28,523 nt of DNA from Amoebophrya sp. A120. Its lineage: Eukaryota > Protista > Dinoflagellata. A program made the translations under genes and the position numbers. Below, in pieces: positions 2,690-28,523 of the stretch. Position 1 is the stretch's first letter, and each line of letters opens with the position of its first letter. The notes below the pieces were generated by a model. That model had not been told where the DNA came from, did not search any database, and was given only the letters and a program-made list of their open reading frames with translations. The stretch is taken from NCBI GenBank assembly GCA_905178155.1, contig CAJINV010000040.1:4970-33492 (forward strand), read 5' to 3'.

Positions 2690-2758
2690 AAAAACGATGA
2701 TGTCCTACAGAAAACGATGATCTTGACACAGAAACGAGCAAAAACGATGATCTTGACA
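2690..2758. repeat. Short imperfect tandem repeat
   Basis: AAAACGATGAT(CTTGACA) occurs three times. Confidence 0.6.
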
Positions 2759-3447: not shown

Positions 3448-3604
3448 GAAAAAACAAGAGCAATTCAATACTGCGGCTGTTGGATCTATTTTCAACGAGC
3501 CAAATGTGTCTACGCTAGCTTTGGGTTCTACACTAGCTTTCAACGGGTTAAATCTGTCTTCTGAAACGTCGAAGAACCCATCGCGATAAGACGAAATAAA
3601 AAGA

Positions 3605-3666
3605 CGTCTTTACCCAAAGACAACAGAGAGAAAGGTCGTCTTTAGCCAAAGACAACACATAGAAAA
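3605..3666. repeat. Two-copy ~32-bp tandem repeat
   Basis: CGTCTTTACCCAAAGACAACAGAGAGAAA and CGTCTTTAGCCAAAGACAACACATAGAAA. Confidence 0.7.
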
Positions 3667-4153
3667 GAGCATGTCTCGTTTTGTACTGCCCAAGCAAATA
3701 TAGACCCGTACAAGCACGACAAGAGTCATGATCCTGCTATCCGTGGATGCGCTTTATGTCACTCATCGCGACGAAGCAGCCTGACGCAGATACTGGAAGG
3801 ATACCGGTGCAGGTCCCTGCGTCCGGATCACACTTCAGTGGTACCATACGTCGGACATCGGGCGAGAAACCCAATTGCGTGCTCCGACTAATTGGTTCGG
3901 GTACTGTCACTTTGTAAATGTAAAGTACATTTTCACTTTGGAACAGATACATAAAAGCTCAAAAAACAATTATACCGGAAAAATATAGGACATGAAGATC
4001 AGTTCAGTGTCAGATCGGTATGAAAAACCCAACAACCCTCTTTCTCTTGTACTTTTTAGAAAACAAAAGCTGGAAGGAGGAAAGTGCAACTGTAAAAAGG
4101 TGAAGAAAAAATGTTTCCAAGGAAATGGAAAATCTGAATCAGCATTGAACAAA

Positions 4154-10100: not shown

Positions 10101-11159
10101 CGGTACGCCTCTTCTGCCGCTTCGTAGTCTGCCTTCTGCGCTGGCGTCTCGAGCATGTGGTTCCGGCGGCCGGGGAAGATCCAGTTTTTTCCTGCGAGAT
10201 GCTCCTGCTCATCGTTAGCCTGAAGGTCATGCGACGAGGATTCCTGCTTTGCAGTGTTGACGTCGGGACCCAGCTTCGGCGACCTGTCGCCGATGTCCAC
10301 TCTCCTCTTTTTGGTTTTGCTTGAAATAGGAGGATTTGCTGAAGCTTGATCTACTTGGTCGTCGGTGTTCGTTTTTCGCGGGCTGATGTGCACGGGCGAA
10401 CTTGTCGATGATAATGAGCCTTGGTTCCCTCGTCTCGTGGTGTCATTCATCAGCACCTGTAGTGAATCTTAGAGTTAGGTTGCAGAAGAGCAGTTCCGTC
10501 ATCGTCATTGAAATGTAGAGCATCAAAAGCGTCTCGAACGAAAATTCAAATATTTGATACCACGAGGTAGTCAAAAAGCATATAATTTTTCAATAAAAGT
10601 GGACCAAGATAGGCGTGCTTCGAAAAAAGTGCGAATCTCGGAAGTTAGATACTTACGACACAACCCACTGATGTACCTGGTGTAGCCCTCGTTGGTTGTC
10701 TGTTTCTTGCAACGTTAGCCGACTCCGGGTCTCCGTATGGATGGCCGTCTGCCAGACTGCTTTTCGCTTTGCGCGCGGTACTGGAATCAACGGCGAGGCG
10801 TCTTCTTCATCACGAGCTGCTGAACTCTTAGCGGCTTCAGTTTCTGTGCCAGCTGCAGGCCAGTCCCAGTCTTCTCCACCCGAGGAAGACGAGCAGGCCG
10901 GTCCTATCACGCCCCTGGCGCGCTTCAGAAATTGCGGCGAGGTTGCCGCTGCCGCCTTTGCGGTGTTTAGTCTCCGCTTCTTGTTGCTCCGACGTCCAAG
11001 CGACCCAGCAGCGGAGAAGGTCGACGCCCGCCTTGTATCTGGTCGTAGAGAGCGAGCGGAGGGAGAGGTTTGTTGATTTCCCGACCCACTGCTTGCTTCT
11101 GCTGCGGTGGCGGTAGAGCGCTTGGATCGCTCCTTAGCATAAGCAAACTCGTGGTTCAT
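4154..11159 (-). CDS. SBNO: Strawberry notch (SBNO) family SF2 helicase-like protein, multi-exon, ~1550 aa in the full model
   Basis: Motifs: QLETI, GFLLGEGTGCGKGR (Walker A), FDECHAAKN, VLYVSAT, LAY|MARLGAW, SRRLSLEGVQF, LALQSTGEA, LPENALDHILNSLGGPEKVAEISGR, AGSTGVSLHA, LELPWS, QQIGRVHRSGQ, plus a C-terminal GTRRQLTATLLCGSFL...VQLRRF...YGILLP block. Exon model (boundaries may shift a few nt): 10677-11159 (tentative), 9188-10456, 7245-9050, 7012-7074, 6526-6827, 6199-6245, 5855-5929, 5341-5639, then tentative 5013-5073, 4767-4831, 4489-4589, 4154-4238. Total 4656 nt, open throughout. The core 6526-10456 is well supported; both ends are less certain. Confidence 0.88.
4244..4488. mobile_element. 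Introner-like inverted-repeat element, family A
   Basis: Ends read inward TATTCAGTACAAATATGTCTGG and TATGCACTGCAAATAGGGGCCTGG. Perfect 5-nt direct repeat TTTTG at 4239-4243 and 4489-4493. Confidence 0.75.
4837..5012. mobile_element. Degenerate introner-like element
   Basis: Ends TATGAAGGGTTGCAAAAAACCGACA and TATCGTCTTGCAAATGCCAACA, with irregular spacing. Removing element plus 5 nt joins DPYWK-R-KDARNVVERHPFMQLK in frame. Confidence 0.4.
5079..5340. mobile_element. Introner-like inverted-repeat element
   Basis: Ends TATGCCAGCAAAAT and TATCTCAGCAAAAT. Removing element plus 5 nt joins ORF 5314-5610 to the frame of ORF 4933-5208. Confidence 0.6.
5645..5854. mobile_element. Introner-like inverted-repeat element, family A
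   Basis: Ends TATGGAATGCAAAAATGTCTGG and TATCAAATGCAAATAGCATGTCTGG. Perfect direct repeat CGTCA at 5640-5644 and 5855-5859. Removal gives VVLARD-GSKWTIARGSVPGRW in frame. Confidence 0.85.
5935..6198. mobile_element. Introner-like inverted-repeat element, family A
   Basis: Ends TATGAGATGTAAATATGTCTGGAGCTGG and TATCCACTGCAAGTATGTCTGCGTCTGG. Direct repeats CGTTA/CGTGA. Removal gives VEAIH-AALDLIGDKK in frame. Confidence 0.8.
6251..6525. mobile_element. Introner-like inverted-repeat element, family A
   Basis: Ends TATGCATTGCAAATGTGTCTGGGTCTGG and TATCAAATGCAAGTATGTCGAGGTCTGG. Direct repeats CGGGT/CGAGT. Removal gives KVEGTR-AAKRLLESG in frame. Confidence 0.85.
6833..7011. mobile_element. Introner-like inverted-repeat element, family B
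   Basis: Ends TATTGTATGAAAAAGTACCGCTCT and TATGCATTGCAAAAGTACCGCACT. Direct repeats TTCTC/TTCTT. Removal gives ADQEE-RIYWSSS, in frame with ORF 6462-6758. Confidence 0.8.
7079..7243. mobile_element. Introner-like inverted-repeat element, family B; also readable as GT-AG intron 7075-7244
   Basis: Ends TATCCTGTGCAAAAGCCTCGCATT and TATGAATTGCAAAAGTTTCGCACT. Removing 170 nt gives SALLP-PALFEDRKSDLKE in frame. Confidence 0.75.
9056..9187. mobile_element. Introner-like inverted-repeat element, family B; non-canonical intron ~9051-9187
   Basis: Ends TATGCATTGCAAAACAAAGCATGATCGCACT and TATTCTGCGCAAAAGTATGAGCGTCGCACT. Removing element plus 5 nt (137 nt) restores the SBNO motif ELAY-MARLGAW between the 440-aa and 632-aa ORFs. 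Confidence 0.85.
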
Positions 11160-12384
11160 GTTGCGCGAGAACGAGGCCTGTGATTCGAGAAGAAATTTTT
11201 TCTTCTAATACGAGCAGCTCAATGGCAATTGTGCTCAGCTTGAAACTGTCCCTGACTGAACGCGAAGGAAATTACACTCCTTTTTTGTGATATCGATTTG
11301 TCTATTCTCCCTCCTTTTGATGGGCAAAGCGCGGAGTTGTGGAGCCCAAGTGGATGAGGCGAGGGGCGGCCAAATCTAACGAAAAACCACGTTCGCGAGG
11401 AAAGATACAAATGCGAAGGTAAAGATTCAAGCGCCTGGTCCACCTGGGGCAAAAAAGGGAGCCAATCGAAAGCCAGAGTTGACATTATCAGACTCGAAGC
11501 AGGGCACTCTCTCCCACCTCATCAGACATTGTCGCTCTAATTCTTTCTGCGTACGAGGCGTTCAACACGCAATTGCGCTTTGAAAAAAGAGCATCGCTCT
11601 GTTCCTTTCAAATTTGACACAAGGCGAAAAAACTGACGAAACGACATCGAGGGCAACGTTAGAAACCAGAGAGAAGCACGGCCAGGGTCTTTTGCCGGGC
11701 TGTTTTAGCGATCAGGAATTTGAACCTAAAAAAAAAACGATATCGCAAACTTTGTCTCCCTCGATTTCAACTAGCGCAGTGCCAGCGCTATTGTGCAAAT
11801 CGGTAGTGGTAACTCGGGTCGGGCTGTCGTGATATCCCTTGAAGCTCAATTCTTCTCTCACTTCGAACAGGAGATATACAGGTTCGGGCCCCCTCTGGCG
11901 GGACTGCTAATTCAAGTTGTCACGGAGACTCCTGTACTTCCAGCTGATAGTTCACGCAAAGTTTTTCGTTCGAGTTCTAGTTTCCACCTAGATAATGAGT
12001 GGGTTCTCTAAGATTGCCACAGATGCTGGCTGTGACAGTACAACAAGCAGGAAAAAAGCCCTTCCTGGGTATTCAAAGTCGCCACACTGGTCAGACTTTT
12101 GTCCGCTGTCTGTGAGAGAAGCTGTTACTCGCAGACGTAAACAAAATCAAAAGCAGTTTGCTTCACATAACATTTGCAGAAGTTCTGCGGAGAGGGTCAT
12201 CAGTGAAAGAGCTCTCAGTAAATCAAGCGCGTTCCTCATCAATTGGGAGTAGTCGCTATTTCACGCGAACAATAAACGAGTGAAGCACAGCGTACACGTA
12301 GTTTTCTGGAACCAGTTCGGCTATTTTGACTGATAACGCAAGAGCTCTTCTATGATCCACTAATCTTCCTCCCGCTCCCAACTC

Positions 12385-13500
12385 CTACATTTCGACGTCT
12401 TCCTCCGCCGCCTCGTCTTCCAAAAAGAACAGGTCCGCGCGGACGCAATCAACGTCCGGGTGCTTCTGGAGGTACCGACAGATTTTGCCTGCGAGGTCCG
12501 AGATTTCATTATGCAGGTTGATCCCTTTATTACGCAGCCCAGCCGCGTACCCGGGAATCACCGCTTCGCGGACGACCTGGACCATGGCCTTTCACTATCC
12601 TGAGCAAGAACGTCCCCACCCCAAAGTTGTCATGCAAATTGCGTTGGCAAGCTGTGAACAGGATAAGGACATGGATTTGTAATGCGGCTGCCACAGCGAC
12701 GGCTTCACTGCACTACCATCCAAAGCGGAATCTGTCACGTATGACTTCCAAAATTTGTGGATTTGCAGCGCAGACTGCTCATCTTGACGCTAGAGAGAAA
12801 ACGCTCTTGCAAATGATAGCCATGCGCCTTTTCTCACCTCGTCCTTGCCCGCGATTACTGTGCGGTCGACGTCGAGACGGACCGTCTTACAGGCATCCAT
12901 GCCGACTATGTCGGCCTTCTTGGTTGCGAACGTTTCCCACGTCGGGCCGGAGTCACCGGGTTCCTCCTGGTCGTTTTCCGCGGCGACGCCGCTTGCTGCT
13001 TCTGCGGGAGAAGCGGGTCGCACGTGGTGTTCACGAAAATCAATGACGAGATAGCTGATGCGCGGGTCACGTTTCAAGGCGTCCGTGGCGCGGGAGGCGA
13101 GGGCCTCCACCGCGGCCCACTCCTCCGGCTCCTTGAAAGCACCAAACTTCTCGCGGACCTGCTGCAGGACCTTGTAAAAGTCCACCGTGCGACGCCCCCG
13201 TTTGTCGGTTTTCTTCAGATCGCTGACGGGTCCTATAACGCAGCGCCTACGGGCAGCGGCCAGCCTTTTGCGCTTGCGAATCTCTTCCCTCCGCTCTTCT
13301 TTTTCGTCTAGATCCGCAAGGGTGTCGTAGATGTGATCGACAATATCTGCAGAGCACGAACTCGCCGGCGACGGCGGCGCGGAGGAACAGGATGGAGTTA
13401 CTCCACCGACACGGCGGAGCAGCCGGTCGGTACTGGTAGAGCGATCAAGGTCGCTAGAAAGATCCAGGTCAGAGTCGGTAGAAAATGAGTCACCCGCCAT
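12385..13500 (-). CDS. Hypothetical protein, 2 exons (12819-13500, 12385-12590), ~295 aa
   Basis: The 236-aa and 66-aa ORFs join in frame (VRKGAW-Q-AMVQVVREAV) when the element below is removed. Ser/Asp-rich N-terminus and a basic NLS-like RKRKR. No family recognised. Confidence 0.7.
12596..12818. mobile_element. Introner-like inverted-repeat element
   Basis: Ends TATCCTGAGCAAGAACGT and TATCATTTGCAAGAGCGT. Element plus 5 nt is 228 nt; its removal deletes the stop at 12790 and keeps frame. Confidence 0.75.
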
Positions 13501-14060: not shown

Positions 14061-14708
14061 TCACCACGTCGCATCACAATCCGCTGCCCAGCGCGCTTTA
14101 TCCTCGTCGGTCATATCTGTGAAGTCTGTCGTTGGTGAACAAATGCCGGCATACGTGGGTGGCGCAGAACAGCCCGCTACAGTCTGCGACCACTCCTGAG
14201 GGCACGGAGCTGCAAATTCGGTAGATTTGCTACTGCACGGCCATGCAGCACCGCATCTCCACGCCCAGTCGACTTTGTTGGCTAGGTCCATGGTCGAAAA
14301 GTTGCGCTCGCCACAGAAGCCTGAGTAGCTAGATCCAGGAACGCACACTGCACCGGCTGAATCAAAACCAACAGGGCAACCGCTGAAATTCATTGGACAG
14401 CCTCCTGCAAAGAGTTGCTTTCTCAGCGCAATGTGTACCGCGATAAAGCTGTCTTTTGTTAGCGCACTCAGAGCCATTTCGCTGGAGACCTGCTCGGCGA
14501 GGGATGCCGTTCCGGCTGCTATTGCCGATGCTTCATTGGCAGAGGCGTCTCCGACAGATTGCTTGTACGCGGAAGAAGATGTTGTGGCGCTTAGGATCTG
14601 GCTGAGCGTTTGGCTAGCTCCGGCAGCACTGCCAGGAAAAATAGGGTCGGCAGTAACGATACGCGATGTTATTGTGCCCAGGACCACCATCGCCGCGCCG
14701 CGCCGCAT
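14061..14708 (-). CDS. Secreted CPW-WPC domain protein (2 domains), ~215 aa
   Basis: ATG at 14708 after a T-tract; signal-like MRRGAAMVVLGTITSRIVTA. Domains CPMNFSGCPVGF...C...YSGFC...KVDWAWRCGAAWPC and APCPQEW...C.APPTYAGIC...KARWAADCDATW. Confidence 0.9.
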   Translation of the reverse strand: MRRGAAMVVLGTITSRIVTADPIFPGSAAGASQTLSQILSATTSSSAYKQSVGDASANEASAIAAGTASLAEQVSSEMALSALTKDSFIAVHIALRKQLFAGGCPMNFSGCPVGFDSAGAVCVPGSSYSGFCGERNFSTMDLANKVDWAWRCGAAWPCSSKSTEFAAPCPQEWSQTVAGCSAPPTYAGICSPTTDFTDMTDEDKARWAADCDATW

Positions 14709-15098: not shown

Positions 15099-15908
15099 CT
15101 ACATCCAGTACGCTCCGCAACGATGCTCCCACAGTGCGAGCATCTTGGCGTTGAAGCCAGTGAAATTTTGCACGTCGGTACACGGTCCAGCATAAGATGG
15201 AGAGGGTTTGCACTTATGTATTCCCGCTGGAGCAAATCCGACGGGGCATGTAGCCGAGTAGGAACGGACGCCCGAAGCACATGGCCAGGAAAATCCACAC
15301 TGTTCCTCTGCACGCATTTTTGCTTCGAGGTTCATTGCTTGAAACGAATAGGGTCCTTTGCTGCAGCTTCCTCTGTAGGTGCTGGCCATGCAGGTTCCGT
15401 TTTGCGCCACTGAGAAGCCTATTGGACAGCTTCTGTAGTCCTTGGGACAGCTCCTTATCAAACCGCTCGGCGTAGCTAAGTGTGGCCTTGGTGTGTGCGA
15501 CATCCCGATCATCATTTCCCGAAACCCGGACACTTCGCTATTCTGTGGCTCTGGCCCGGAAGGAATAGCCGAGAGGGATGAAAATAGTCCGTCCGCAGAA
15601 GAGGCTCTCCGCAAAAAACTGGTTTCATGCCATGTCGAGCGCGGACTTGTGCCCTGGCTGTAGCTTTGTTTCACCAGGATGCTTCTGCCAGAATGTACGG
15701 TGCCAGCATCCGTATGCGCTTCCCGAAGTTCAGCAGGGAATGGCGGGAACGTCCGTGATGGAATCAATTTAGAGAACAATCCGCTTTGCTGCGTTGGCGC
15801 TGCTGTGATTGGCGTAGTTGCGAGGCGGATGGCTGGCAAACGCACGGCTGCAACGGCTGTGATCCCCGGGAGTACGAGGTGCGGCAAGGTAGCGAGTCTG
15901 TGAGCCAT
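15099..15908 (-). CDS. Secreted CPW-WPC domain protein (2 domains), 269 aa
   Basis: Hydrophobic N-terminus; TSFLRR. Domains CPKDYRSCPIGF...YRGSC...KMRAEEQCGFSWPC and RSYSATCPVGF...YAGPC...WEHRCGAYW. Confidence 0.9.
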   Translation of the reverse strand: MAHRLATLPHLVLPGITAVAAVRLPAIRLATTPITAAPTQQSGLFSKLIPSRTFPPFPAELREAHTDAGTVHSGRSILVKQSYSQGTSPRSTWHETSFLRRASSADGLFSSLSAIPSGPEPQNSEVSGFREMMIGMSHTPRPHLATPSGLIRSCPKDYRSCPIGFSVAQNGTCMASTYRGSCSKGPYSFQAMNLEAKMRAEEQCGFSWPCASGVRSYSATCPVGFAPAGIHKCKPSPSYAGPCTDVQNFTGFNAKMLALWEHRCGAYWM

Positions 15909-16267: not shown

Positions 16268-16735
16268 TTACGCACACGGAAAGGTGGCTCCACACTTCCA
16301 AGCAAAGTCTGTTTTCTGTGCGTTGGTCATACCAGAAAACGACCGCGGGCCGCAGTACCCTGTATAGGATGCCGTCGGGTAGCAGGTTCCATCAGACAAA
16401 GTGAAGCCGATGGGGCATCCAGACATATCCATGGGACAGCCACCAGCGTAAAGCTGTTTCCGCACCGCCACGTGCGCAGCAACATACGCGTCCTTCTTCA
16501 GGCTTTCCAACGCTAGAGCTGACGAAACCTCTTCTGTCAGGGCGGCCGTTCCGGCCGCGATGGCAGCAGCTTCATTGACCGACGCGTTGCCGATGGACTG
16601 CTTGTATGCCGAACTGGAGCTGCCGGCCGACATAATGCTAGCTAGACTACTGGCTGCAGCTGCAGCAGAGCCCGGGAAAATTGGATCAGCCGACGCGATA
16701 GCGGCCACCGCCGAGAGAACAGCAAGACCCAACAT
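16268..16735 (-). CDS. Secreted CPW-WPC domain protein (1 domain), ~155 aa; paralogue of 14061-14708
   Basis: Signal MLGLAVLSAVAAIASA. ADPIFPGSAA...SSSAYKQS.G.AS.NEA.AIAAGTA is shared with the paralogue; ends KTDFAWKCGATFPCA. Confidence 0.9.
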   Translation of the reverse strand: MLGLAVLSAVAAIASADPIFPGSAAAAASSLASIMSAGSSSSAYKQSIGNASVNEAAAIAAGTAALTEEVSSALALESLKKDAYVAAHVAVRKQLYAGGCPMDMSGCPIGFTLSDGTCYPTASYTGYCGPRSFSGMTNAQKTDFAWKCGATFPCA

Positions 16736-17148
16736 ATTTTTTTGGCGCAATCAAAAAAAACAAAACCAACTAAGTGACTTGATATGAGTGAAGTATAATT
16801 GCGCAATAGGCCATACGTGTGTAAAATACCAAGTTTGATTGCAGACGGCATTGGCTTTGTGCTATGCGTTCTGATGTCTTACTTGCCATCCCTCCAAGAC
16901 ACACGAGCGCGACCCCTATGTCGTCGACAAGCGAAGGCATGCAGTGCAGCAGTGGACAAGTAGTCGACACCGAGATTTGCCACGAAATACTTCTGAACAG
17001 AACTGGAGGAAGGACTTTTTCATGTGCACTGACAAGAAGTGGCTTTTCATGCCTGCATACTGTGGCTCGCAATTCTTTATCAGCGTTCTTTGCAATACTC
17101 CAATCTCAAAGGGCGAGAACAAAGACTTTACGACCCGGCATTGGTTCC

Positions 17149-17484
17149 TCAGGCGTGCAGGTGCAGCTGCACGATTGGCGACTGCGTTTTGCGCTCTGGC
17201 AGGTAGCCCCCCGACGCTCCCATGATACGCGAGACCAAACCACGCAAGAGGGCTCCTTTGCGGGCTTGCAAGAAGGAGCTTGATTGACCGGTCGTGTAGT
17301 CTACTACGGATCCTCCTGCTGCCGCAGCGGAAGCGGCCCCATTAGAGGACGCGGCCGCCTGATATGCTAGTCCTGCGGACCTGTACGCCTTGGCGGCTGC
17401 GGAAATGTCAGAAAGATCGCTCTCACGCTGAGCCGAGACAAAAACTCCCATCAGGGCGCTCAGCACGACGGCAAGGCGAAACAT
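17149..17484 (-). CDS. Small secreted Ala-rich protein, ~111 aa
   Basis: Signal MFRLAVVLSALMGVFVSA; SSFLQA; ends in beta-strand-like SPIVQLHLHA. Confidence 0.8.
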   Translation of the reverse strand: MFRLAVVLSALMGVFVSAQRESDLSDISAAAKAYRSAGLAYQAAASSNGAASAAAAGGSVVDYTTGQSSSFLQARKGALLRGLVSRIMGASGGYLPERKTQSPIVQLHLHA

Positions 17485-17795
17485 TTTATTTTTGAAAAAG
17501 CTGGGAGAAAAAAATAACTGGAGCTGTAGTGGCTTGGGTGGAAACACATACTACTTTAGTGGCAGCCTGCGTATTTTTCTGGTAGTTCTTGAAAAAGTTG
17601 AAACCGCCACGACGTCACTCCGAGCAAAAGATAGCTGCTGGCACGTCTCTCACCACCACACATTCCGCTCAACAGCACGCAGTCGAGAACGAACAGACAG
17701 AGTCACCAGCCTGTAGACGCACTAGATAACGGGGCTTCGCATTACTTTCTATATGGCGAGAATCTTCGAATCAAAACAAGGTCCATTTTAATATT

Positions 17796-18416
17796 TTAAC
17801 CCAAGGCCGAGGCGATCATACCATTTAACGCCTTGACAAATTGGATCTGCATGTCCATGATCTTGCCTTGCATGGCCACCTCTGAGGCGTCGCGGGAGGA
17901 CTCAGTGGCCTGCAAAAGATCCACGGTGGATGCCCACGGAATGTCAGACGCCTTGACTTTGACGCCGATGGAGCCGGACCCTTTTTGGAGGAAGCTGGCA
18001 TGGAGCGCACTCTTCAACTCCCCGATCACGATTTTGGCCAAGGCGCCAAACTCTGCAGTGGCCTGTGCAATGGTCTTCGATTCCAAATCTGCGCGAACAT
18101 TTTCAAAAGCAGCAACACGGCCAGCAGACGCTCCTGATTCCGGGGCGTTCATCACGCGAATGAAAACTGGCGCGCCTTGGAGAAACGAAGAATGATGCAC
18201 AACAGCGTCAATCTCCGCTTTAGCAGATGCCAGCGCTGCAGTCATGGCTTTCTGGATTCCATTCATCCCGGATGCTTCCATAGCAGACTCTGCCTTTCCG
18301 TAGGACGCGAAGCCGCTCCCGGCATCCACCGGAGGCGCTAAGGCTACCTGGATAAGCGGCTCACTGTCAGCAGCAACGCTGCCAATCAAGCACGCTGTGA
18401 GAATTTTCCCATACAT
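17796..18416 (-). CDS. Secreted protein with three strand+helix modules; resembles apicomplexan blood-stage antigen 41-3-like proteins, 206 aa
   Basis: Signal MYGKILTACLIGSVAA; EPLIQVALAPP...SSFLQ...EFGALAKIVIGEL...ASFLQ...VDLLQATESSRDASE. The family resemblance is from memory and unverified. Confidence 0.85.
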   Translation of the reverse strand: MYGKILTACLIGSVAADSEPLIQVALAPPVDAGSGFASYGKAESAMEASGMNGIQKAMTAALASAKAEIDAVVHHSSFLQGAPVFIRVMNAPESGASAGRVAAFENVRADLESKTIAQATAEFGALAKIVIGELKSALHASFLQKGSGSIGVKVKASDIPWASTVDLLQATESSRDASEVAMQGKIMDMQIQFVKALNGMIASALG

Positions 18417-18690
18417 TTTCCTGAACTGTGAGAGCAGAAAAAAAATCTACTGAGAGGAAGATGTTTATGTCTGTAAAATGCATAAAATGCACGTGTGCAA
18501 GATTTTGTAAGCTACAGTTGATTGCTCTAGTTGCAGGTTTGTTTGAACGAGTCTTGGTCTCTCAGTAGTGAACAGAACACGAAGTGGTCGCGGGACTCAT
18601 TGCTGGCTGGATCAGAAATACTTTGGACTCAAGCAGATGCGACTCAACAACATTTAACAAACACTAGCACATTCTCAACAGGTCGATGTC

Positions 18691-19347
18691 CTAGTGCGAG
18701 AGCGCTGCGGCACCGATGGCATTCAAAGCCTTCACCAGCTGCATTTCCTTTGCAAGGATCGTGGTTCTGAGCCTTGTTTCACCCGAGTCGCGACGAGCCT
18801 CCATGTCACCCAACAAGGCCGACACAGTCTTGTACGATGGGTCTGCGCCGACGCGCACGTTGATTTCGCGGGAAAAGCGCAAAAAACTTTTGCGTCCGCG
18901 TAATTGCTTGTCAAACTCCGCGATCACAACTTTGGCAACCTCTGAAAATTCCTGCTTGGCTGACGAGACCAGAGCACCCATTGCCGCAGAGCGTTTGCCC
19001 TCTAACGCCTTGACCCCGGCAACACCCGCGGACTCATCTGAGGTGGCGCCTTCAATACGAACGGAAATGACCGGCTCCGCAATGTTCGCAAAAGACGCAC
19101 GGCCCATGGCTTTGGAAATGGTGTTCCCGAGCGTTGCCGAGGCTTGGGCCAGGGTCGACTTGTACGCGGCGTCGATTTCAGCCAGGGCTGCGTGTTCAGC
19201 TGCGAGGCGGCTTGACTCTGCGGCAGCAATAGCACTTGACACCGCTGGATAAGGGGCGGAAGGGGATGCTAAACTCAATTCCACCACCGGCTTGCCAGCG
19301 CGGACCAGCACGGCACAGGCACTGAGCGTCGATAGCAGCTTTGCCAT
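18691..19347 (-). CDS. Secreted paralogue of 17796-18416, ~218 aa
   Basis: Signal MAKLLSTLSACAVLVRA. KPVVELSLASP, EFSEVAKVVIAEF, KSFLR, LLGDMEARRDSGE and MQLVKALN are collinear with the neighbour. Confidence 0.85.
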   Translation of the reverse strand: MAKLLSTLSACAVLVRAGKPVVELSLASPSAPYPAVSSAIAAAESSRLAAEHAALAEIDAAYKSTLAQASATLGNTISKAMGRASFANIAEPVISVRIEGATSDESAGVAGVKALEGKRSAAMGALVSSAKQEFSEVAKVVIAEFDKQLRGRKSFLRFSREINVRVGADPSYKTVSALLGDMEARRDSGETRLRTTILAKEMQLVKALNAIGAAALSH

Positions 19348-19648
19348 ACTTGATTTTGGGAAAGACAAGTAGATACTGATACACAAAAAAACAGAATCCT
19401 GCGTGAGGCAGAAGGACAGACGGGTTGATGGTACGGGAAATCCACGTTGCCTTTTGCGAGAATCTCCGAAATCATGCGCCAATGCGCAGGGGGGAAGATC
19501 TCTCACCACGCTCAGACACGAAACACAAACACGAAACGCCGACGCGATCCAAATCTGGGCGGAGCCAAAGCTTTTTCAATTTTTGCTTTTCAATGGAGGA
19601 AATCAAATTCTGAAGAACTACAGTCCGAGTCAGGTCATTCTCAATCCC

Positions 19649-19933
19649 CTAGCCCAAAAGGTCACGCGCGGTTGCCTCATTCATTTTTTCCATGCTGATC
19701 ATGGACTGCAGTGCGCTGTTGGCATGAGCCCGGCGCCGAGCTAAGAGTGCCAAGGTTGCTGCCTCAGATCGGCGCATCTCAGCAGAGCGCCGCGCCGCGA
19801 TTGCATCTGGAATGGCGCTTTCCAACGCAACGTTGATCACTTCAACAGGTCCAGCAGAGCCGTGGGTAAGAATGTCCTTGTATCCGAAGGCGCACCCGAT
19901 CAGGGCAAAGAACAAGGCCGCAACGCGCATCAT
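19649..19933 (-). CDS. Small secreted protein, ~94 aa, single strand+helix module
   Basis: Signal MMRVAALFFALIGCAFG; PVEVINVALES followed by an Ala/Arg-rich helix. Confidence 0.8.
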   Translation of the reverse strand: MMRVAALFFALIGCAFGYKDILTHGSAGPVEVINVALESAIPDAIAARRSAEMRRSEAATLALLARRRAHANSALQSMISMEKMNEATARDLLG

Positions 19934-20240
19934 TTGTTGTAGCTTTCCCGTTTGCAAAAAAATCCTGAAGATTCACTTCAGTCACAATAACGAGAGCAAC
20001 ATGACTCCAATCAAAATATGCGTTTTGGGTAGGCGACGAGCGATCTCTCCCGCTTGTCACTTGCTTTTTGTCCAGTCCGTTAGCGAGGAAGAAGCGACTC
20101 AGAGCAGAACAGAGAGCAGAAAAGGCCTGCAAGGCTCAGTAAAAGCGAAGTTTTTGAAGGAAATATTCACTTGAATGCGAGACATCCACTGCTATTCTCT
20201 TGAAATGCCACCCGGGATGCTGTCACGGGATTGTGAGTTC

Positions 20241-21374
20241 TTATGCACTAGGCACCTTGGCGGAGCCAGATCCAAAGTACGGCGAGTTGACAATGGAGTC
20301 CGAGCCCGTGCTGTAAATGTCAAATCCAGATGCCGTATTTTCCAAAGCCGCGAGGGAGGCCGGCGCGACCGGGCACTCTGCGGGGACGGAAGTCGATTCT
20401 TCAAAGCTGCTGTACTGCGGCGGCAGGTTGTCACTCCGCAAATACAGAGCCATGGTGCACATTGGCGGGGCAGAGACGGTGCTGCAGGTGTCAGCAATGT
20501 CTGTGATCCAAAAACCTGGGCACGCGACCAAAGTGGCGATGCAGCTTGTGAAGCAGAGTGGCAGGCGACCGACCGGAGTTGGCTCGTTGCGGGCCATTGG
20601 AGTGGAGCACCGCGGAAAAATGGCGCCGCATTGCATAGACATGTAGGTCTTGAAGCACAGAGAATACGCCGCGCTACCCGTTTTGCCAACACGGTCCTTG
20701 TACAATGCCGGAAACGAAGCAATGGTGCCATCCAACTGGGCATCAGTCACGTCAGCAGTGACAAAGTCGGCAGCAGTGATTGGGTACAACACGGAGCCGA
20801 CACAGTTGTGGCCAGTAACCATTGGCATGCAGGGAAGCGGTTGGTTCATCCACACGGGGGGCGGCACCATTGGGGGAACTATCTGCAGCACGGTGGACAT
20901 TGCAGCCTGAATCAGGCCAGCACCGGTGGCAAGACCATTCATAGCGAGCATCTGAGGCATACCGCCTGCAGCTCCCGCGGCTCCAGATTTGCTTGCTAAC
21001 TCTGCGACCATCTTGCTGACGTCAAATCCGAAGAGACGCGACACTACCCCTCCCGGGAAAGCTGAAACTCCCTTGACAGCCACCGCAGCTGGGGCGATCC
21101 CATAGTCGCAGTGCGGGGTAGACGAGCCGGTTTTGTAGTCCTGCAAAAAGGAGACAGCGGTGTCCAACATGTTCAGGTGCGTTTGGTAAGAATTCACATC
21201 AAACTCCTTGGCCATTTTGTCATAGACCTGCAAAAACGCCTGCTCCATTTCTGGAGACTGCTCTTTGAACAAGGCGATATACGCATCAGACCCGTGCAAG
21301 TTTTTGTCTGCCATCTCTTGGCTGGTCATCAGTGCGGACGCACCGATAACGCAGAGAGACGCGACCCGCAACAT
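20241..21374 (-). CDS. Secreted Cys-rich protein with Frizzled-CRD-like domain, ~377 aa
   Basis: Signal MLRVASLCVIGASA; AFLQ and SFLQ. PPPVWMNQPLPCMPMVTGHNC...CFKTYMSMQCGAIFPRC...RLPLCFTSCIATLVAC has FZ-type cysteine spacing. Confidence 0.88.
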   Translation of the reverse strand: MLRVASLCVIGASALMTSQEMADKNLHGSDAYIALFKEQSPEMEQAFLQVYDKMAKEFDVNSYQTHLNMLDTAVSFLQDYKTGSSTPHCDYGIAPAAVAVKGVSAFPGGVVSRLFGFDVSKMVAELASKSGAAGAAGGMPQMLAMNGLATGAGLIQAAMSTVLQIVPPMVPPPVWMNQPLPCMPMVTGHNCVGSVLYPITAADFVTADVTDAQLDGTIASFPALYKDRVGKTGSAAYSLCFKTYMSMQCGAIFPRCSTPMARNEPTPVGRLPLCFTSCIATLVACPGFWITDIADTCSTVSAPPMCTMALYLRSDNLPPQYSSFEESTSVPAECPVAPASLAALENTASGFDIYSTGSDSIVNSPYFGSGSAKVPSA

Positions 21375-21684
21375 GATTTGATTCTTTGTAACAAAGAAAA
21401 AAGTAGCTAAATGCGCGTTAAATGAAGAGGTAGGTTCATGACCGCTAGGAAATGCAATTGTATACATATACACAAGCCGACGAAGAAATTTGCTTCGCTC
21501 ATTGTCTCTCCACACGAATCCGCGGTTGTGCAACGAAGAACATCATGAAATGTAGAAAAAAACAAATATCACGCAAGAAAGCGGGAAGACCTAGAACGCG
21601 AGAGAGCGGTGCTTGAGCTGTTTACTTAATTGAAAACAAACGCAAAGGCCTTGGACGCGTTTTTGGAAGTCCTGATTAAGTGAG

Positions 21685-22235
21685 TTACGCACACGGGAAC
21701 TCTGCGCCAACACTCTCCGCAACGGCTTGTTTTTCAATAGCCGCCAAACCAGAAAAGGAGACACTGCTTCCAGACGCGGAGACGCAGGCATCACCCGACG
21801 GGGCCCATCCCGAAGGACAACCAGCGTAGTTGCGGGCACAGGTCACCGCCGAAAAACTTACACCTTCTGCAACAGCAGCCGCCTGGAGTGCGTCGGATAG
21901 GGTAGCCTTGATCATCATGGCCGATTCACTGGGGTGGGCCGCCTTCAAAGAAGATTCTAGACCTGAAGTGAAGAAGTAAATTTTGACTGTAAGAGTTTTG
22001 CACGGTTAATAAAGTCATCATATGTAGTCTGAAAGTTATAAACACCTCTAAGCAGTTGGAATCTTGTACCTGCCAGCGCTGGAGCGCGCAAAAACGACGC
22101 ACGATCAGCGATAACGTTCACCACGAGAACGTCGCCTTTGTTCACATCAGTGAAGATTTCTTTAGGCAGGTCGAATGGGACAGTTGCCAAGCAGGATGCG
22201 ATCCCGCAGGCGAATGCCACGACGAACGACTTCAT
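21685..22235 (-). CDS. Secreted protein with degenerate C-terminal CPW-WPC domain; 2 exons (22070-22235, 21685-21962), 147 aa
   Basis: GT-AG intron 21963-22069 (G|GTACAA...TTCACTTCAG|GT) joins ASFLRAPALAG to LESSLKAAH in frame. Domain CARNYAGCPSGW...C...EKQAVAESVGAEFPCA. Confidence 0.85.
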
Positions 22236-22548
22236 TGTGTGGGCTAGTTGTATTTGAAAGAAACGCAGCTACAGCTTTGGTAATTGCAGATGCAATGGTG
22301 ATGATGCTCGAGTTGCGTCCTCACGGTTGTACAAGCACGCCAGTTTGCTGCCGCTTTTGTTTTTGTTCATCTACACTCACCAAACAATGTGAACACACGA
22401 CTCATTGGTTTTGCAGAAAAAGAGAGCGAGTGAGCTCCGGACGTAAGCGCATTCACAGGGAATTTGATTGTATTCAGTTCAGACATGTCTGAATTGCTGT
22501 GCCTTTCCCGAGAGTCCTGCGCCCGCGAGACAAGACTGAGGAAGCGGT

Positions 22549-23343
22549 TTAGTGGTAGAGCGAACCCGCCAGGGAGTCCGCCGCCATAGCTCCAGCCTTC
22601 AACTGTGCGATCTCCTCTTCAGCCCCATAAACACGACTTGGCGACGGCAGCACGATGTTTGTGTGGCCATAGGCGCCGGTTGCAGAGTCACTAGACTGGA
22701 ACGAGACCGGCATGTTGGTCAGGAACGTGATCAAAGAACCGGCCATGTCCCTGGTGGCATCTGGGGTACTTTCCTTCTGTGCGAGATTTTTGACTTTGAA
22801 CAGGAGGGGCTGCATGGCAACGCGAGCATTGGGCAGAGAAGCAAGATCCAACAATCCTGCGACACCATGCTGTGCAGAATAGCCACCAGCGTCAACGAGC
22901 GACCCGTAGTAGCTGACTGCATCTTTGAAAACAGATCCATCTGCACCCTCACGCTGGAGATCGGATAGCGGCGTGCGCAGAAAGGATTTGTGTGCCGCGC
23001 GTTCTAACATCTGCACTTCCTGTTGCTCGACGCCAGCCAGTGCAGTTGCAGCGGCAGCACGATCAGCTGCGAGCGACGCAGACGCGGTCTCACCTACGTG
23101 CAAGTTCAACACGGGACGCTGCAAGAAGCTGTACTTTTTAGCCGCAGCGCTCATCACTGCCTCCACGCCGGCGTTGCGCAGCACTGGTTGGGCCAGCGCA
23201 GGCGCAATTTTTTGCTGAAAATCCGCGGAATTCGAGCTGATTCCAGCAGAGAGCGCCTCACCCAATTGTTCACCGACCGCGAAAGACGGCATAGCCGCCT
23301 CAGCAACGGCAGCGAAAGTGCAGGCGACGAAAAGTTTTGACAT
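22549..23343 (-). CDS. Secreted protein with two SFL motifs and a helical (ARM-like?) C-terminal region, ~264 aa
   Basis: Signal MSKLFVACTFAAVAEA; YSFLQRPVLNLHVGE; KSFLRT; C-terminal AGSLITFLTNMPV...GAYGHTNIVLPSPSRVY. Confidence 0.85.
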   Translation of the reverse strand: MSKLFVACTFAAVAEAAMPSFAVGEQLGEALSAGISSNSADFQQKIAPALAQPVLRNAGVEAVMSAAAKKYSFLQRPVLNLHVGETASASLAADRAAAATALAGVEQQEVQMLERAAHKSFLRTPLSDLQREGADGSVFKDAVSYYGSLVDAGGYSAQHGVAGLLDLASLPNARVAMQPLLFKVKNLAQKESTPDATRDMAGSLITFLTNMPVSFQSSDSATGAYGHTNIVLPSPSRVYGAEEEIAQLKAGAMAADSLAGSLYH

Positions 23344-23647
23344 CTTCCTGGCGATGATTCCACGAAAAAAAACACGACGCCAAGGACTTGTGCTACGGCA
23401 AGTCAAGCAACATTTCTCTTTGATTTCTCTTTGATTACGCGGGCTGATTCTGTCTCTTTGATTACGAGTATTGCATTTTTTGGGTGGCCGCTCGTTGTCA
23501 CGACACATGAGCACGAATTTAGGAACACATATGAACGTGAGACGCTGGAAAATACATTGTGGAAAATGGGAATCAAAAAACTATCAGGATTTCATCAGTG
23601 TATTGTCGCGTCCGATTTTTTGACACGTCACCGGTTTGGCATCCTGC

Positions 23648-24653
23648 CTATGGCGGGCTGGCCACTAACGGGCTGCCAATAACCTTGCATTTGCTGGTGA
23701 CGGCCTGTTTTGTGTAAAGGGAAGGAAATCATGGGAAAGCCTCCTGATCCGGCGCGACGCAATTAATCACAAAAGAAAAGCTACACGGATCCCCCCGTAC
23801 TAGTCTATAGAAAAAATAGCTGAATAGTGTACCTTTGTGGCCTCCCAAACCGAATCATTGATGCCCCAGACCTTTCCCATCAACGAGTGGACCGGTCCGC
23901 AAAACGGAGCGAATCTGAGCAAGCACGTGCTGGCGGTGTAAACGTCGATGCAGGCACACAGAATTTTGGTCGCAACACCCAATACATGGATTGGGAGGTT
24001 GATGGCTTGGTAGATGGCCAGGGTCGCGACACGACCGAAGTTGCAGCGGTTGCCCAGTGCCTCCACCAGCTTGCAGGACTTGGCGTCAAGGTATGCCAAA
24101 CAAAAATACCATTTCTGTCCGATTCTCAAACCGCATGTAAGCTCTAACTAAGCTCTCCGTCACTCCGTGAATACACCTGAGTTTCAGTACTGAATGCAAG
24201 AATTACATTGTTGTCTGGGCATTTTGGTAGTTTTGTTTATGATAAAAAGCAGGGCGCGTCCATCATTGGAACAGCAGACGACAAGGTGCTGCGCTCTTTC
24301 AAAAAGGCGCTGTGGGTTGCCTGGAACTCAGCTAGCGCCGTGGTCGGGTCCTCATGCTCCACAGCGGCTTGGAATTCCTTCATTTTGTTGAAAGTGTCAG
24401 CGGTTTGTTCCTGAAGTGCAGACAGGACCGTTTTGCCATCCTTCTGTGCAGTCGACATCACGGAATCCCAGTACTTCACGCATTCCGCACCACAGTCCTT
24501 GCTCAACACCTCGCGGACCTCATTCAGCTTATCCAGCGGCACCTCAGTGTGCTGTGCAGGGAGGGACAGCAGACGGTTCCCCGCGGTGATCCGCTGCGAC
24601 ATGGACAGAGCGCTGGCGCCCGCCACAACCGTCAAGGATACAGCAACTTTCAT
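23648..24653 (-). CDS. Secreted Cys-rich protein, 3 exons (24245-24653, 23833-24086, 23648-23704), ~239 aa
   Basis: Signal MKVAVSLTVVAGASA. The introner-like intron ~24087-24244 and GT-AG intron 23705-23832 give DAPCF(Y/D)AKSCKLVEALGNRCNFGR...LCAC...CLLRFAPFC...WEATK-AVTSKCKVIGSP. Confidence 0.78.
24092..24244. mobile_element. Introner-like inverted-repeat element
   Basis: Ends TATGCCAAACAAAAATACCA and TATCATAAACAAAACTACCA. Removing element plus 5 nt joins ORF 24237-24653 to the frame of ORF 23800-24129. Confidence 0.82.
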
Positions 24654-24919
24654 CTTAGTGTCTCAGTTTGGAAAAAAAACGCACTATTTGGGAGACGAAT
24701 GCGTTGGAAAGACTCAATGATTGACTTGGAGGGTTTGGCCATTTGATTTTGACAAAAGACCGGAAGAGCAAAAGCCATTTTGGTGCGGTCGCGCCCAGAC
24801 GAACACATCATGACGACATAAGGCATGAAGGACCAGTTTGGGTCTCTGTGTAGGTTAGTTACTAACTTTTATCAGGAGACTGTTATTGTCACTTGTTTAC
24901 ATTGTTGGAGTGCCACTGT

Positions 24920-25306
24920 TTACACGCGCAAGCTAGCGAGACCCGCAGAAAAGGCTTGCATATCATAAGCAGCTTGGCTAGAGTCAGCGACGGAGGAAGC
25001 CGACGCAGTAAACTCAGGGCGTTTCTCCACGATGTTGACCTTCGCCGGAGAGTCGGTCCGCATTGGCTGCGTCAAAAACAAAGCCTCCTTGACCATGCCT
25101 GGAGATCCGGCCCACGCAGCAGCCCCAGTTTTAAGGAAGGAAGTTTTGCCCATGACTTGGGAGTGCATGAACGCCTGAATGCGAGCCTCCAATGCAGCAA
25201 TGTCTTTGGCGCTTGCTGTCAGGTGTCCCGGGCCAGCAACTTTGATGGACTCTGCAGTGCAGCAGGCAAAAAAAGCCGCAACCGCGATAAAGAGTGTACG
25301 CAGCAT
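24920..25306 (-). CDS. Small secreted protein, ~128 aa
   Basis: Signal MLRTLFIAVAAFFACCTA; TSFLKT; PAKVNIVEKRP followed by a helix. Confidence 0.82.
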   Translation of the reverse strand: MLRTLFIAVAAFFACCTAESIKVAGPGHLTASAKDIAALEARIQAFMHSQVMGKTSFLKTGAAAWAGSPGMVKEALFLTQPMRTDSPAKVNIVEKRPEFTASASSVADSSQAAYDMQAFSAGLASLRV

Positions 25307-25654
25307 TCTTCGCAAGAAGTTCTAGTTTCAGGTTCTCTATTCAAAAAAAGTGCTACAAGATTAAGAGGAGACCGTGCAATGTTAGTCAAGCAGACAGTGT
25401 TGTAGTAAAACGTTAGGCGACGGCAGCTTTGGCATCAGGTTTGAGTGCACAGCATTCACTCCGCTCTGGACGTATCCGAGTCCTAGCCTGTCTCTCAAGG
25501 CAGCGTCGAACGAACAGAATGATTGAGCAATGACGTTCGAGGCTACACAGCCCAGCGAAGAATCTGAGGAGTGGGGTTCTCTATTCCAACTTAGAAACGA
25601 GTGCACTAGAAGAGTCACGCTTAGCTGCGGTAATCAGGCGACACAGGTTGCTGC

Positions 25655-26212
25655 TTAGTACGCGACATCGCAGAAGATCTGCGCTTCTTGCTTCTCCGCG
25701 ACGCTCAGGTCAGACGGCAGGCCTCTGGTGCAGAAACCCGAGTAGCTTCCGGTAGGATTGCACGTTCCCGCGGTCTCCACCCATCCAGACGGGCAGGTAG
25801 CGGTCGGTCCAGTGAGTCCAGAGAGCTTAGTCGCGGCCGCCGCAACCTGTTGGGCAATTGTGGACAAATCACCGCTGGACAGTCCGGTCAGCTTCAGAAA
25901 GCTCGCAGCACCCGTGGAGTAAGGCAAAGTAAACTTGCCGACGGTCGTGGGCGACGACCCCATTGCGGCTTTCACCGCTGCTGTGAGCTGCTTCTCCTCC
26001 GGCGATGACGGAGCGGCAGCAGCAAACGCTTCAGCGCCCGCGAGTAAATCTCCGGTCACCCCTCCCAACTTCGCATCCGACGGCATGGTGGCAGCAGTCA
26101 ATCCAGCTGCACCTCCTCCAGACAGCGAGCCGATAAGCCCCGACGCTGCCGACGCGCTGTCCCTCACTTTGAGGGCGGAGGCGGCTCCAAAAAGGCAGAA
26201 AACAACGCGCAT
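25655..26212 (-). CDS. Secreted Ala/Gly/Ser-rich protein with C-terminal CPW-WPC-like domain, 185 aa
   Basis: Signal MRVVFCLFGAASA; ASFLKL; TCPSGW...C.PTGSYSGFC...EKQEAQIFCDVAY. Confidence 0.85.
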   Translation of the reverse strand: MRVVFCLFGAASALKVRDSASAASGLIGSLSGGGAAGLTAATMPSDAKLGGVTGDLLAGAEAFAAAAPSSPEEKQLTAAVKAAMGSSPTTVGKFTLPYSTGAASFLKLTGLSSGDLSTIAQQVAAAATKLSGLTGPTATCPSGWVETAGTCNPTGSYSGFCTRGLPSDLSVAEKQEAQIFCDVAY

Positions 26213-26553
26213 GTTGCTCGACTAAAAGGTAAACTAGATTTCTTGGTTCTAAATTTTGTTGGTCATGGACACAATGAGGAGAAAAATAATCCAGGTGGCC
26301 GTTTAGATTCCAATCTCTCCGCGAAACAGCATATGACGAGGACTATAAATTTGCTTACCACATTTGTTTCTCATCACTCAGCGATTGGGGTGATGACGAC
26401 TCATATAGAACACAGAAGAAGAAACTATTTTGATGGAGCGCATGAAGAACTCACGAAGCAGAGTTGAGATTTCAAAAGCGAAACATAGACGCGTTTTTCA
26501 TCAGTCAAATGTAGGAAGGTCCGCTCGAGCGGCTCCGGGCGCCAAGGAGAGAT

Positions 26554-27672
26554 TTAGCGCAGCTGTGACTGCAAGCTGGAAATGGCCTGCATCTCACCCT
26601 TGACAGCTGCGATATCTGCACCGGAGACGAAGGTCGGAGTCTCAATGTCCACGTTCAGCACCGGAGCGGAGCGCGGCACATCATCACCACTCAGGAAGGA
26701 GCTGTGGGACATTTCAGCTTCCAAGCTAGCGAGGCGCTTGGCCGCGTACGCAAATCCGTCAGCCGTCAGGCGTGCCATATCTACCTTCTTGCCCTTTGAA
26801 GCGGAGTCAACCATCACGTGCACAGTCGGCTCACGGGAAGGAGAGGCCTTCAAGAAGGACGCGCCCAAAGCAGCGGAGCGAATGGCTTGGAAGGATTTTT
26901 CAATGCTCTGCTCGAGCGACGTCTTGATGGATTGGTACTCACTTTCCAGGACCGAGGCCGGGGCACCTGCTTCAAAGTACACGTCAGTCTTGCCCTTTTG
27001 CAGAAAGGACGCGGCTTTCAACGCGGCCAACTCCTGGGTGAACCCTGCATGTGGCACGTCATAGTGGATGTCGATCACAGACGGGAGCGAGGCCTGCATG
27101 GTGGACTGAATGGCAACTGGCGGCACGAAAGGCTCCAGAAAGCTGGACTTGCCGCGCACGATCCGGCCGATCTTCGCGATCTCTGCAGAGAGCATAGCCT
27201 GCTTGAGGGATGCGTCCGCGGCAGCTTCGGCCGACGACTTTGCAGATTCAGTTTTGAAAATAGACGAGACGGCAGCGTCAACCGACGCCTTGTCTTCAGC
27301 AGGAGCGTGCAACACGAATTCATGATCCGCAGCTGGAGCGAGCGACGAATAACCCTGGAGAAACGAGTGATGCGCGCCAACGATGCTGTGAACCTTGGCA
27401 ATCTCTGCGTTCAGAAGACGTTGCTTGTCCGCTAGCCCCGCCGCTTCCAGACCCTTTTCATGGGCCTTCTCAACAGCCATCAGCGCATCAATGTCAGCGT
27501 TTGCCTCGGCAGATGGCATGGAGGGGGGCATCAGGTTCAAAGTGTAAGGAGTCGCGTCGGCGGCCTTACCCGCAATGCCCGATGCCACACCCGGCGGCAC
27601 CATTTCCAGCGGGTCAGGGAACATCCGCGCACCATGAGCGCACAGGGAAGTCGCTGCAAGCACACGAAACAT
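26554..27672 (-). CDS. Secreted polyprotein-like protein with five SFL motifs and internal repeats, ~372 aa
   Basis: Signal MFRVLAATSLCAHGA; SFLQ, SFLE, SFLQ, SFLK, SFLS. Modules 1 and 2 are homologous (KQRLLNAEIAKVHSIV vs KQAMLSAEIAKIGRIV). Confidence 0.88.
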   Translation of the reverse strand: MFRVLAATSLCAHGARMFPDPLEMVPPGVASGIAGKAADATPYTLNLMPPSMPSAEANADIDALMAVEKAHEKGLEAAGLADKQRLLNAEIAKVHSIVGAHHSFLQGYSSLAPAADHEFVLHAPAEDKASVDAAVSSIFKTESAKSSAEAAADASLKQAMLSAEIAKIGRIVRGKSSFLEPFVPPVAIQSTMQASLPSVIDIHYDVPHAGFTQELAALKAASFLQKGKTDVYFEAGAPASVLESEYQSIKTSLEQSIEKSFQAIRSAALGASFLKASPSREPTVHVMVDSASKGKKVDMARLTADGFAYAAKRLASLEAEMSHSSFLSGDDVPRSAPVLNVDIETPTFVSGADIAAVKGEMQAISSLQSQLR

Positions 27673-27957
27673 CTTGTTTCTGTGACTAACAAAACAAAGA
27701 AAAAGATTCACTACAAGGATCACACGCTTCAAATAAGCATTGCAGACCACATCTGGGAGCTCGCGAAGTTTGGTAGGCCTTTTGCATTTGCGCTCATTAT
27801 TTGGGGCAACGATTTGCGCTCATTTTGTAACGTTTGAACAAAACGACACTCAAAGGAGTGGATCTCAGACCTTTTGTCGCGGTCCGTCAGAAAACTCTGA
27901 TTCAATCATTTGCACTGATATTCACGCACAAGTCCGCGTTGCTCTTGGATCATCAGT

Positions 27958-28523
27958 TCAGCATCCTCCCGGACAGGACGCAGCCGCCGAGGCGTAGGTC
28001 GGGTGCGGCCGGGGGGCATGCTCCATACCCAACATCATTTCCCGGAAGGCAGCCAAGCCCGTGGTGTCCGGCTGCGGCGGGACCGGGAGACTTCCCATGG
28101 CGCCCAGAATCGCATCGCCTTTGCGCAGAAAACTGGAGGGAGTGAGCGCCGCCAGAAGGGCCTGCAGGTGTTTTTGAGTACAGAGTGAGTATGTTATTTT
28201 TCCCGAGCAGAAAAATGTGTGAACAAACGAGCGACGAGAAAATGCAGATTCACAAAGAAAGAGTATTATACTTTATCAGAACGCAACTCCTGAGCCGCCG
28301 CAGCGATACGATTGTCCAGCGCCAAGCCGCTTTCCATGGACGACATGGCCGAAGCCGCGTCAAAGGCCGGGAAGTGGTACCGGACGTTCACTTCTGGCAG
28401 GCTGTGGGCAATTTCACCAGTGAATTCTGCTTTTTCAGCCGGGAGGCCGTAATTTCCGGGGGCCGTCGGCGAGTTAAACGCCGTGAAGCCAGCGACGAGC
28501 GTCGCGCACGATGCAAAAACAGT
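27958..28523 (-). CDS. 5'-truncated secreted protein, 2 exons (28272-28523+, 27958-28161); absent from the ORF track
   Basis: Open frame TVFASCATLVAG...PEVNVRYHFP...RSDK, then GT-AG intron 28162-28271, then ALLAALTPSSFLRKG...FREMMLGMEHAPRPH...SCPGGC*. Homologous to FREMMIGMSHTPRPH in 15099-15908. Confidence 0.8.

Follow-up and report, generated by a model that had tools for sequence, protein, structure and literature searches.

The window analysed here, a stretch of 28,523 nucleotides of the Amoebophrya sp. A120 genome (GenBank assembly GCA_905178155.1, contig CAJINV010000040.1, positions 4,970 to 33,492), a marine organism that parasitises dinoflagellates, carries a cluster of about 15 minus-strand genes extending from 14061 to the window end at 28523, which we name G1 to G15. 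The cluster includes homologues of the Plasmodium antigen 41-3 and of CPW-WPC proteins, and many of its proteins contain the tripeptide SFL, often at the border between structural units. Each of the about 15 genes starts with a hydrophobic N-terminus resembling a signal peptide, as judged by N-terminal hydrophobicity, supporting the claim of a first-pass annotation of 17149-28523 that the proteins are likely secreted. The genes are:

G1, 14061-14708, minus strand: signal-peptide-like start and two CPW-WPC domains (PF09717, E 2.7e-23); left end of the cluster, outside the range of the first-pass annotation.
G2, 15099-15908, minus strand: SFLR site followed by two CPW-WPC domains.
G3, 16268-16735, minus strand: short G1 paralogue with one CPW-WPC domain.
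G4, 17149-17484, minus strand: putative signal peptide, SFLQ (17277) and, at the C-terminus, the bare strand PIVQLHL (17158-17178) lacking a helix; in one relative (P0154) attached to the end of 41-3, motif homologues in the metagenomic loci L027 and L035.
G5, 17796-18416, minus strand: antigen 41-3 homologue with three strand+helix repeats, strands at 18359, 18170 and 17972, SFLQ between them (18188, 17996).
G6, 18691-19347, minus strand: second 41-3 homologue, 28-30% identical to G5, strands at 19290, 19074 and 18867, SFAN at 19095 and SFLR at 18888.
G7, 19649-19933, minus strand: single strand+helix unit, strand at 19843; SFL-joined before or after 41-3 in relatives (P0144, P0160, P0175, P0192, P0231, P0233).
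G8, 20241-21374, minus strand: Cys-rich protein with pro-region and SFLQ (21152); likely PBANKA_0620300 orthologue.
G9, 21685-22235, minus strand: strand (22130), SFLR (22097) and CPW-WPC-like domain, intron at about 21961-22067; in relatives attached to the end of 41-3 (P0158) or of G14 modules (P0310).
G10, 22549-23343, minus strand: SFLQ (23130), strand+helix (23115), SFLR (22986) and a conserved C-terminal domain.
G11, 23648-24653, minus strand: helical pro-region, AFLK (24308) and Cys-rich domain, introns at about 24088-24245 (non-canonical) and 23704-23831.
G12, 24920-25306, minus strand: SFLK (25141), strand (25045) and short helix; joined to G7 and G6 types in one relative (P0233), motif homologues in L027, L034 and L044.
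G13, 25655-26212, minus strand: Gly/Ala-rich pro-region, SFLK (25903) and CPW-WPC domain.
G14, 26554-27672, minus strand: six-unit polyprotein with five SFL sites (27366, 27144, 27009, 26859, 26700).
G15, 27958-28523, minus strand: 5' end cut by the window; strand (28397), helix, intron at about 28161-28270, SFLR (28134) and G2-like tail; fused in front of G14 modules in P0311.

Judged by sequence, G5 and G6 are homologues of the Plasmodium blood-stage antigen 41-3 over the whole mature protein. G5 shows 91% identity to a protein of Amoebophrya sp. A120 and 53-55% identity to three proteins of A25, and the G5/G6 profile retrieved 323 representatives at E≤1e-3, including Plasmodium 41-3 (E 1.7e-16), Vitrella and Theileria, the best 150 of the 323 being examined. 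A 146-row alignment reveals a plan repeated three times, i.e. the strand motif, a Pro linker and a helix with a hydrophobic-E-x-x-R-x-x-x-E core, and the three repeats match each other with hhalign values of 61-94% compared to at most 2% for reversed controls. AlphaFold2 using the 146 sequences predicts three helices of 41-42 residues with core blocks at a predicted local distance difference test (pLDDT) of 82-94, the overall pLDDT being 75 and the predicted template modelling score (pTM) 0.62; with 14 sequences alone the pLDDT was 51. The three repeats and both SFL joints are shared with Plasmodium 41-3 (PBANKA_0606200 family; SFLQ and SFLE in Plasmodium), whereas G5 and G6 are shorter (206-218 compared to 375 amino acids), have far shorter linkers, are Ala-rich and occur as two clustered paralogues, with relatives fusing 41-3 to its neighbours. 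Because six of the modules form this antigen, their earlier description as parts of unrelated-looking proteins without known relative is not supported, although no Pfam family matched 41-3. Comparison of 41-3 with the PDB gave nothing below E 0.09 by sequence and, using the 41-3 model in Foldseek, nothing at E≤0.001; VIA-align of the model returned generic helical bundles only (best Z 8.0), the ESM Atlas held no usable match for G5, and a predicted complex of three G5 copies calculated without alignment scored 0.00, giving no answer. The Theileria orientalis homologue (P0199) is annotated inside a tRNA isopentenyltransferase gene model, which is probably a mis-fused prediction. An initial assignment of G8 to 41-3 was wrong; it is the G5/G6 profile that reaches Plasmodium 41-3.

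Two further families connect the cluster with the crystalloid of Plasmodium. Five open reading frames (ORFs) match CPW-WPC (Pfam PF09717), with G1, G2, G3 and G13 above the curated cut-off of 23 bits and G9, at 21.9, just under it. G8 has 113 homologues, including Plasmodium, Besnoitia and Cyclospora, and is likely the orthologue of PBANKA_0620300, because the N-terminus of its P. yoelii homologue equals 19 of the 21 residues of the printed PBANKA_0620300 signal peptide. In P. berghei, 41-3 and PBANKA_0620300 belong to the interactome of the crystalloid protein LAP3, as do six CPW-WPC proteins, and parasites mutant for PBANKA_0620300 show a significant reduction at the step from oocyst to salivary gland (PMC7487766, available portion). 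The same report lists plasmepsin VI among the crystalloid pull-down proteins (its Table 1); this protease is female-inherited and required for sporogony, with no known substrates named in the available portion of PMC13637054, making it a candidate protease for 41-3. At least three families of the LAP3/crystalloid complex (41-3, CPW-WPC and PBANKA_0620300) are thus encoded side by side in Amoebophrya, where the genes are adjacent and in relatives fuse at SFL, whereas the Plasmodium genes are spread over several chromosomes. LCCL, PH-like, NTH and TPM genes were absent from the 20 window ORFs scanned.

The SFL motif is strongly biased in its distribution. Within 17149-28523 the minus strand holds 19 copies and the plus strand none; for SFL[QEKR] the numbers are 15 and 0, respectively, compared to one occurrence in all six frames of 1-13400. 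An SF-type motif is kept in 103/146 and 118/145 of the 41-3 linkers, which reach a length of 138 residues, and SF[LI][QE] is present at all 14 sites of the 7 homologues examined as apicomplexan- or chromerid-like, 3 of them named. SFL is likely an aspartyl-protease maturation site, because apicomplexan 41-3 keeps SF[LI][QE], matching the plasmepsin IX/X consensus (PMC7146544, PMC9804387 and PMC13637054, available portions), which is given as SF*hQ/E/D for plasmepsin IX (PMC13637054) and as SF*hE for plasmepsin X (PMC9804387). As in plasmepsin IX/X and TgASP3 sites (SF*hE/Q; rhoptry S-phi-X-E), SF plus a hydrophobic residue stands in linkers of secretory pro-proteins, the apicomplexan homologues conforming exactly; in contrast to these sites, the fourth residue in Amoebophrya is often R, K or S, and a single chain uses the motif as many as five times to join polyprotein units.

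Gene fusions and fissions mark the same positions. Among 311 proteins fetched, 18 combine pieces of different window genes, namely G5+G7, G7+G6, G6+G9, G5+G4, G14+41-3 (both orders), G12+G7+G6, G14+G9 and G15+G14; because 41-3, G8 and G14 were the queries, the detectable fusions are those including one of them. The pattern [SAG]F-hydrophobic is present at 19/20 fusion joints compared to 2.5 expected (maximum 8 in 1000 draws), and at 13/14 joints in 13 proteins after removal of four near-duplicates and one cross-match, the exception being NFLA. The G14 part following SFLE is a separate gene in two relatives (P0308/P0309), its own signal peptide, with the cut point read by the AXA rule, ending just before the same L-E-P-F-V, and in P0310 SFLK takes the place of the G9 signal peptide. 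As far as these sequences tell, signal peptide and SFL are interchangeable where genes have fused. The fusion joints support the earlier proposal that SFL is a likely cleavage site; a common destination for the pieces is supported as well.

Most of the gene set reappears on other marine contigs. A metagenome scan with the G8 alignment detected 77 loci; an earlier scan with the G5 alignment had detected none. Among the loci of at least 2.4 kb, 15/18 contain one or more other cluster families in addition to the G8 homologue, in a gene order different from the window. Six intron-poor sequence types (GC 0.59-0.68), whose proteins are 42-48% identical to G8, hold parts of one set, reordered. The long cassettes carry, on one strand, two 41-3 genes, four CPW-WPC genes and G4-, G8-, G10-, G11-, G12- and G14a-like genes; the G10 C-terminal domain is found in related cassettes with E 1e-11 to 1e-17, and G11 occurs in them as well, its protein family remaining unnamed by the Pfam scan and its exon giving no usable ESM Atlas match. 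The two ends of L027 (1-12002) overlap exactly over 141 bases, and L044 and L046 represent the same 11.7-kb unit in circularly permuted form, the closed units measuring 11.7-11.9 kb with roughly 12 genes in two distinct sequence types; such a closed cassette is either a collapsed tandem array or a free circle. In L027 (6529-7791) and L035 (2270-3403) the G10 C-terminal domain is preceded by G14c-like units, recognised by eye and below the search threshold, which likely represent another fusion. In A25, 41-3 and G8 homologues lie on the same contigs (gene numbers 26555, 26560).

We consider it fairly probable that the cluster of about 15 genes encodes small, likely secreted proteins, including three crystalloid-complex families, which are cut at SFL by a plasmepsin IX/X- or ASP3-type aspartyl protease and the pieces of which assemble into one secretory-organelle complex. 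The homologies of 41-3 and CPW-WPC, the triple repeat of 41-3, fusion and fission at SF-hydrophobic motifs and the recurrence of the gene set are observations, from which we infer cleavage, protease, assembly and organelle. According to this model, the signal peptides would mediate entry into the endoplasmic reticulum, a post-Golgi aspartyl protease would cut at SFL, and a separate gene and a polyprotein segment would therefore yield the same mature unit. The helices of roughly 41 residues may pack together, the short strand motif serving for docking and becoming ordered only once bound to a partner, and the released helical units would form, with the Cys-rich domains, one complex stored in a vesicular spore organelle comparable to the crystalloid.

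Several observations weigh against this model. Only 8/17 window SFL sites end with Q/E, the other 9 having R, K or S, the strict consensus is present in 33/146 and 31/145 of the 41-3 linkers (under a quarter), and 16/55 G8 relatives have an SF-like motif. ASP3 is described without obvious consensus, and ROP1 is cut after SFVE and not after SF (PMC5595437, available portion). 41-3 and PBANKA_0620300 are linked to the crystalloid only as pull-down partners. Because LAP orthologues were not found in dinoflagellates, according to the available portion of PMC11285972, the organelle may be something other than a crystalloid. Little is added by the co-orientation of the genes (98%) or by the synteny between A25 and A120, because both are general in Amoebophrya (PMC7789003, available portion). 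AlphaFold2 shows no strand in 41-3, and as the strand and SFL linkers have a pLDDT below 50, beta-augmentation is neither shown nor excluded by the prediction.

In a wider interpretation, which we put forward tentatively as the less probable of the two, an ancestral self-assembling secretory matrix of myzozoans would be encoded by an operon-like cassette with about 12 genes, which some marine alveolates have amplified into tandem arrays or free 12-kb circles. This matrix would be built from protease-released, interchangeable units docking via the strand motif, and the malaria crystalloid would be a descendant that later added or kept LAPs. Gene boundaries would be movable in such a system because signal peptide and SFL site are equivalent.

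The first-pass annotation had proposed a hidden module of strand, amphipathic Ala-rich helix and SFL shared by all proteins. All 17 strands it listed were located in minus-strand ORFs (17158-28397). Ten are followed by a Pro-poor segment ending in SFL/SFA and five by a segment running to the C-terminus; two lack a helix, i.e. PIVQLHL in G4, directly followed by HA and the stop, and VLVVNVI in G9, where SFLR follows within few residues. A helix does not follow every strand, and 13/17 pieces, but not the remaining 4, have the proposed size of 40-70 amino acids. A strand matrix of nine columns trained on 41-3 relatives alone ranks the listed strand top in all 7 other genes, scores at least 7 bits for 8/11 non-41-3 strands and gives 9 matches of at least 6 bits compared to a shuffled mean of 2.4 (maximum 7 in 100 shuffles), confirming a shared strand motif; the matrix has limits, an unrelated helicase strand scoring 12.9 bits and three strands of G14 (26554-27672) scoring at most 0.4 bits or being unlisted. 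Whole-module homology is shown only among the 41-3 repeats and between the first two G14 modules (z 8.8). Splitting, aligning and profiling the units was significant among the 41-3 repeats, while other modules reach hhalign values of at most 18% against them, and the units of G7, G10, G12, G14 and G15 show no profile homology to 41-3 above control in these shallow families of 1-19 rows, those other than G14a having 1-7 sequences. A value of 95% for G14a against 41-3 repeat 1 was rejected, since two 41-3 rows had entered the alignment; the cleaned value is 16% compared to 32% for the reversed control. The proteins do contain 11-22% Ala, as a property of all of them and not specifically of the helices (Plasmodium 41-3 has 2%), and amphipathicity beats 95% of own shuffles in 2 of 15 testable segments only. 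The strands and SFL sites are thus confirmed, yet a single hidden homologous domain made of them is not supported; outside 41-3 the short strand motif alone is common.

These data make it unlikely that, as originally suggested, cleavage frees about 20 homologous strand+helix peptides co-polymerising by beta-augmentation into a crystalline, trichocyst-like extrusome matrix. Such a lattice can coexist with the protease-matured secretory complex and claims more. It would fit a strand motif that is common beyond composition and is kept at the helix-free C-terminus of G4 and of its distant relatives, and multi-copy cassettes would suit an abundant structural product; profile homology is missing outside the 41-3 repeats and the AlphaFold2 model is without strand. 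Trichocyst matrix proteins (TMPs) are proteolytically matured, disulfide-linked proteins of 15-20 kDa. They resemble the Amoebophrya proteins in being secreted, helical and encoded by multigene sets, whereas the Amoebophrya pieces have 5-7 kDa, are Cys-free and have crystalloid-associated homologues; the apicomplexan crystalloid complex is the closer comparison. Pfam and PDB scans of the 41-3 alignment named no TMP, a direct comparison with TMP sequences not being made. In favour of the lattice, infective Amoebophrya spores possess trichocysts next to rhoptry-like organelles and vesicles (bioRxiv 2025.04.10.648098; PMC9478091); against it, Paramecium queries have retrieved candidate TMPs of its own from the dinoflagellate Oxyrrhis (PMC8285334, available portion).

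It appears improbable that SFL stays uncut as a sorting or binding motif in flexible linkers, with 41-3 and its neighbours acting as intact helical proteins. Outside apicomplexans the fourth position also admits R, K, S, G or A and the model of intact 41-3 is reasonably confident, both compatible with this explanation, while the exchange of signal peptide and SFL at gene fusion points, the Cys-rich luminal domains fused behind SFL and the match of apicomplexan sites to a demonstrated protease consensus favour cleavage. That the pattern arose by chance from Ala-rich helices, generic beta-like heptamers and a common tripeptide chosen by eye is very hard to sustain, since compositional Ala-richness, amphipathicity not above shuffles and a helicase strand scoring as high as the picked strands are set against the strand bias of SFL, its conservation from Amoebophrya to Plasmodium, its presence at the fusion joints and the homology of the 41-3 repeats; chance is largely refuted for SFL and 41-3, and the helices of G7, G10, G12, G14c-f and G15 remain compatible with it.

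The gene models of G9, G11 and G15 are fixed by four introns that are skipped in contigs from presumed RNA runs (two samples of one study). The intron at 24088-24245 has TT..TT on the coding strand, is skipped in contigs of three runs and shows, by eye, an imperfect inverted repeat near its ends; non-canonical introns matching it are reported for Amoebophrya (PMC7789003, available portion). The last CPW-WPC motif of G1 (14061) and G2 (15099) stops at Trp, the final Cys being absent, and in G2 a short intron could be the source of the missing Cys. Extra depth and loose contig ends at 17007-17507 in run X1 suggest a second G4 copy elsewhere in the genome. An extension of G4 past its stop by frameshift or intron was dropped, as the sequence of a look-alike contig departs from the window directly behind the stop (loose end at 17148) and the proteins of relatives, too, end soon after the strand. 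At 7239-10468 a strawberry-notch-like helicase unrelated to the cluster is encoded by two ORFs (AAA_34, Helicase_C_4), which probably belong to a single intron-containing gene.

The families and the protease motif are already known, and their combination was not found in the literature searched, from which subscription journals were largely missing; among the matches listed, PMC7487766 is the only one naming both '41-3' and 'crystalloid', and 'CPW' is absent from the Amoebophrya genome literature searched. Malaria transmission requires the crystalloid, and for the majority of the crystalloid proteins no function is assigned. From the cluster, a likely LAP-independent core can be named that is older than the apicomplexans and comprises 41-3, CPW-WPC, PBANKA_0620300 and several families without a name. 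The prediction for 41-3 is cleavage at plasmepsin-type sites into three helical units, and the fusion map indicates which pieces belong together. Conserved functional gene clusters with movable polyprotein joints and cassettes assembling as circles would be unusual in genomes of the dinoflagellate line.

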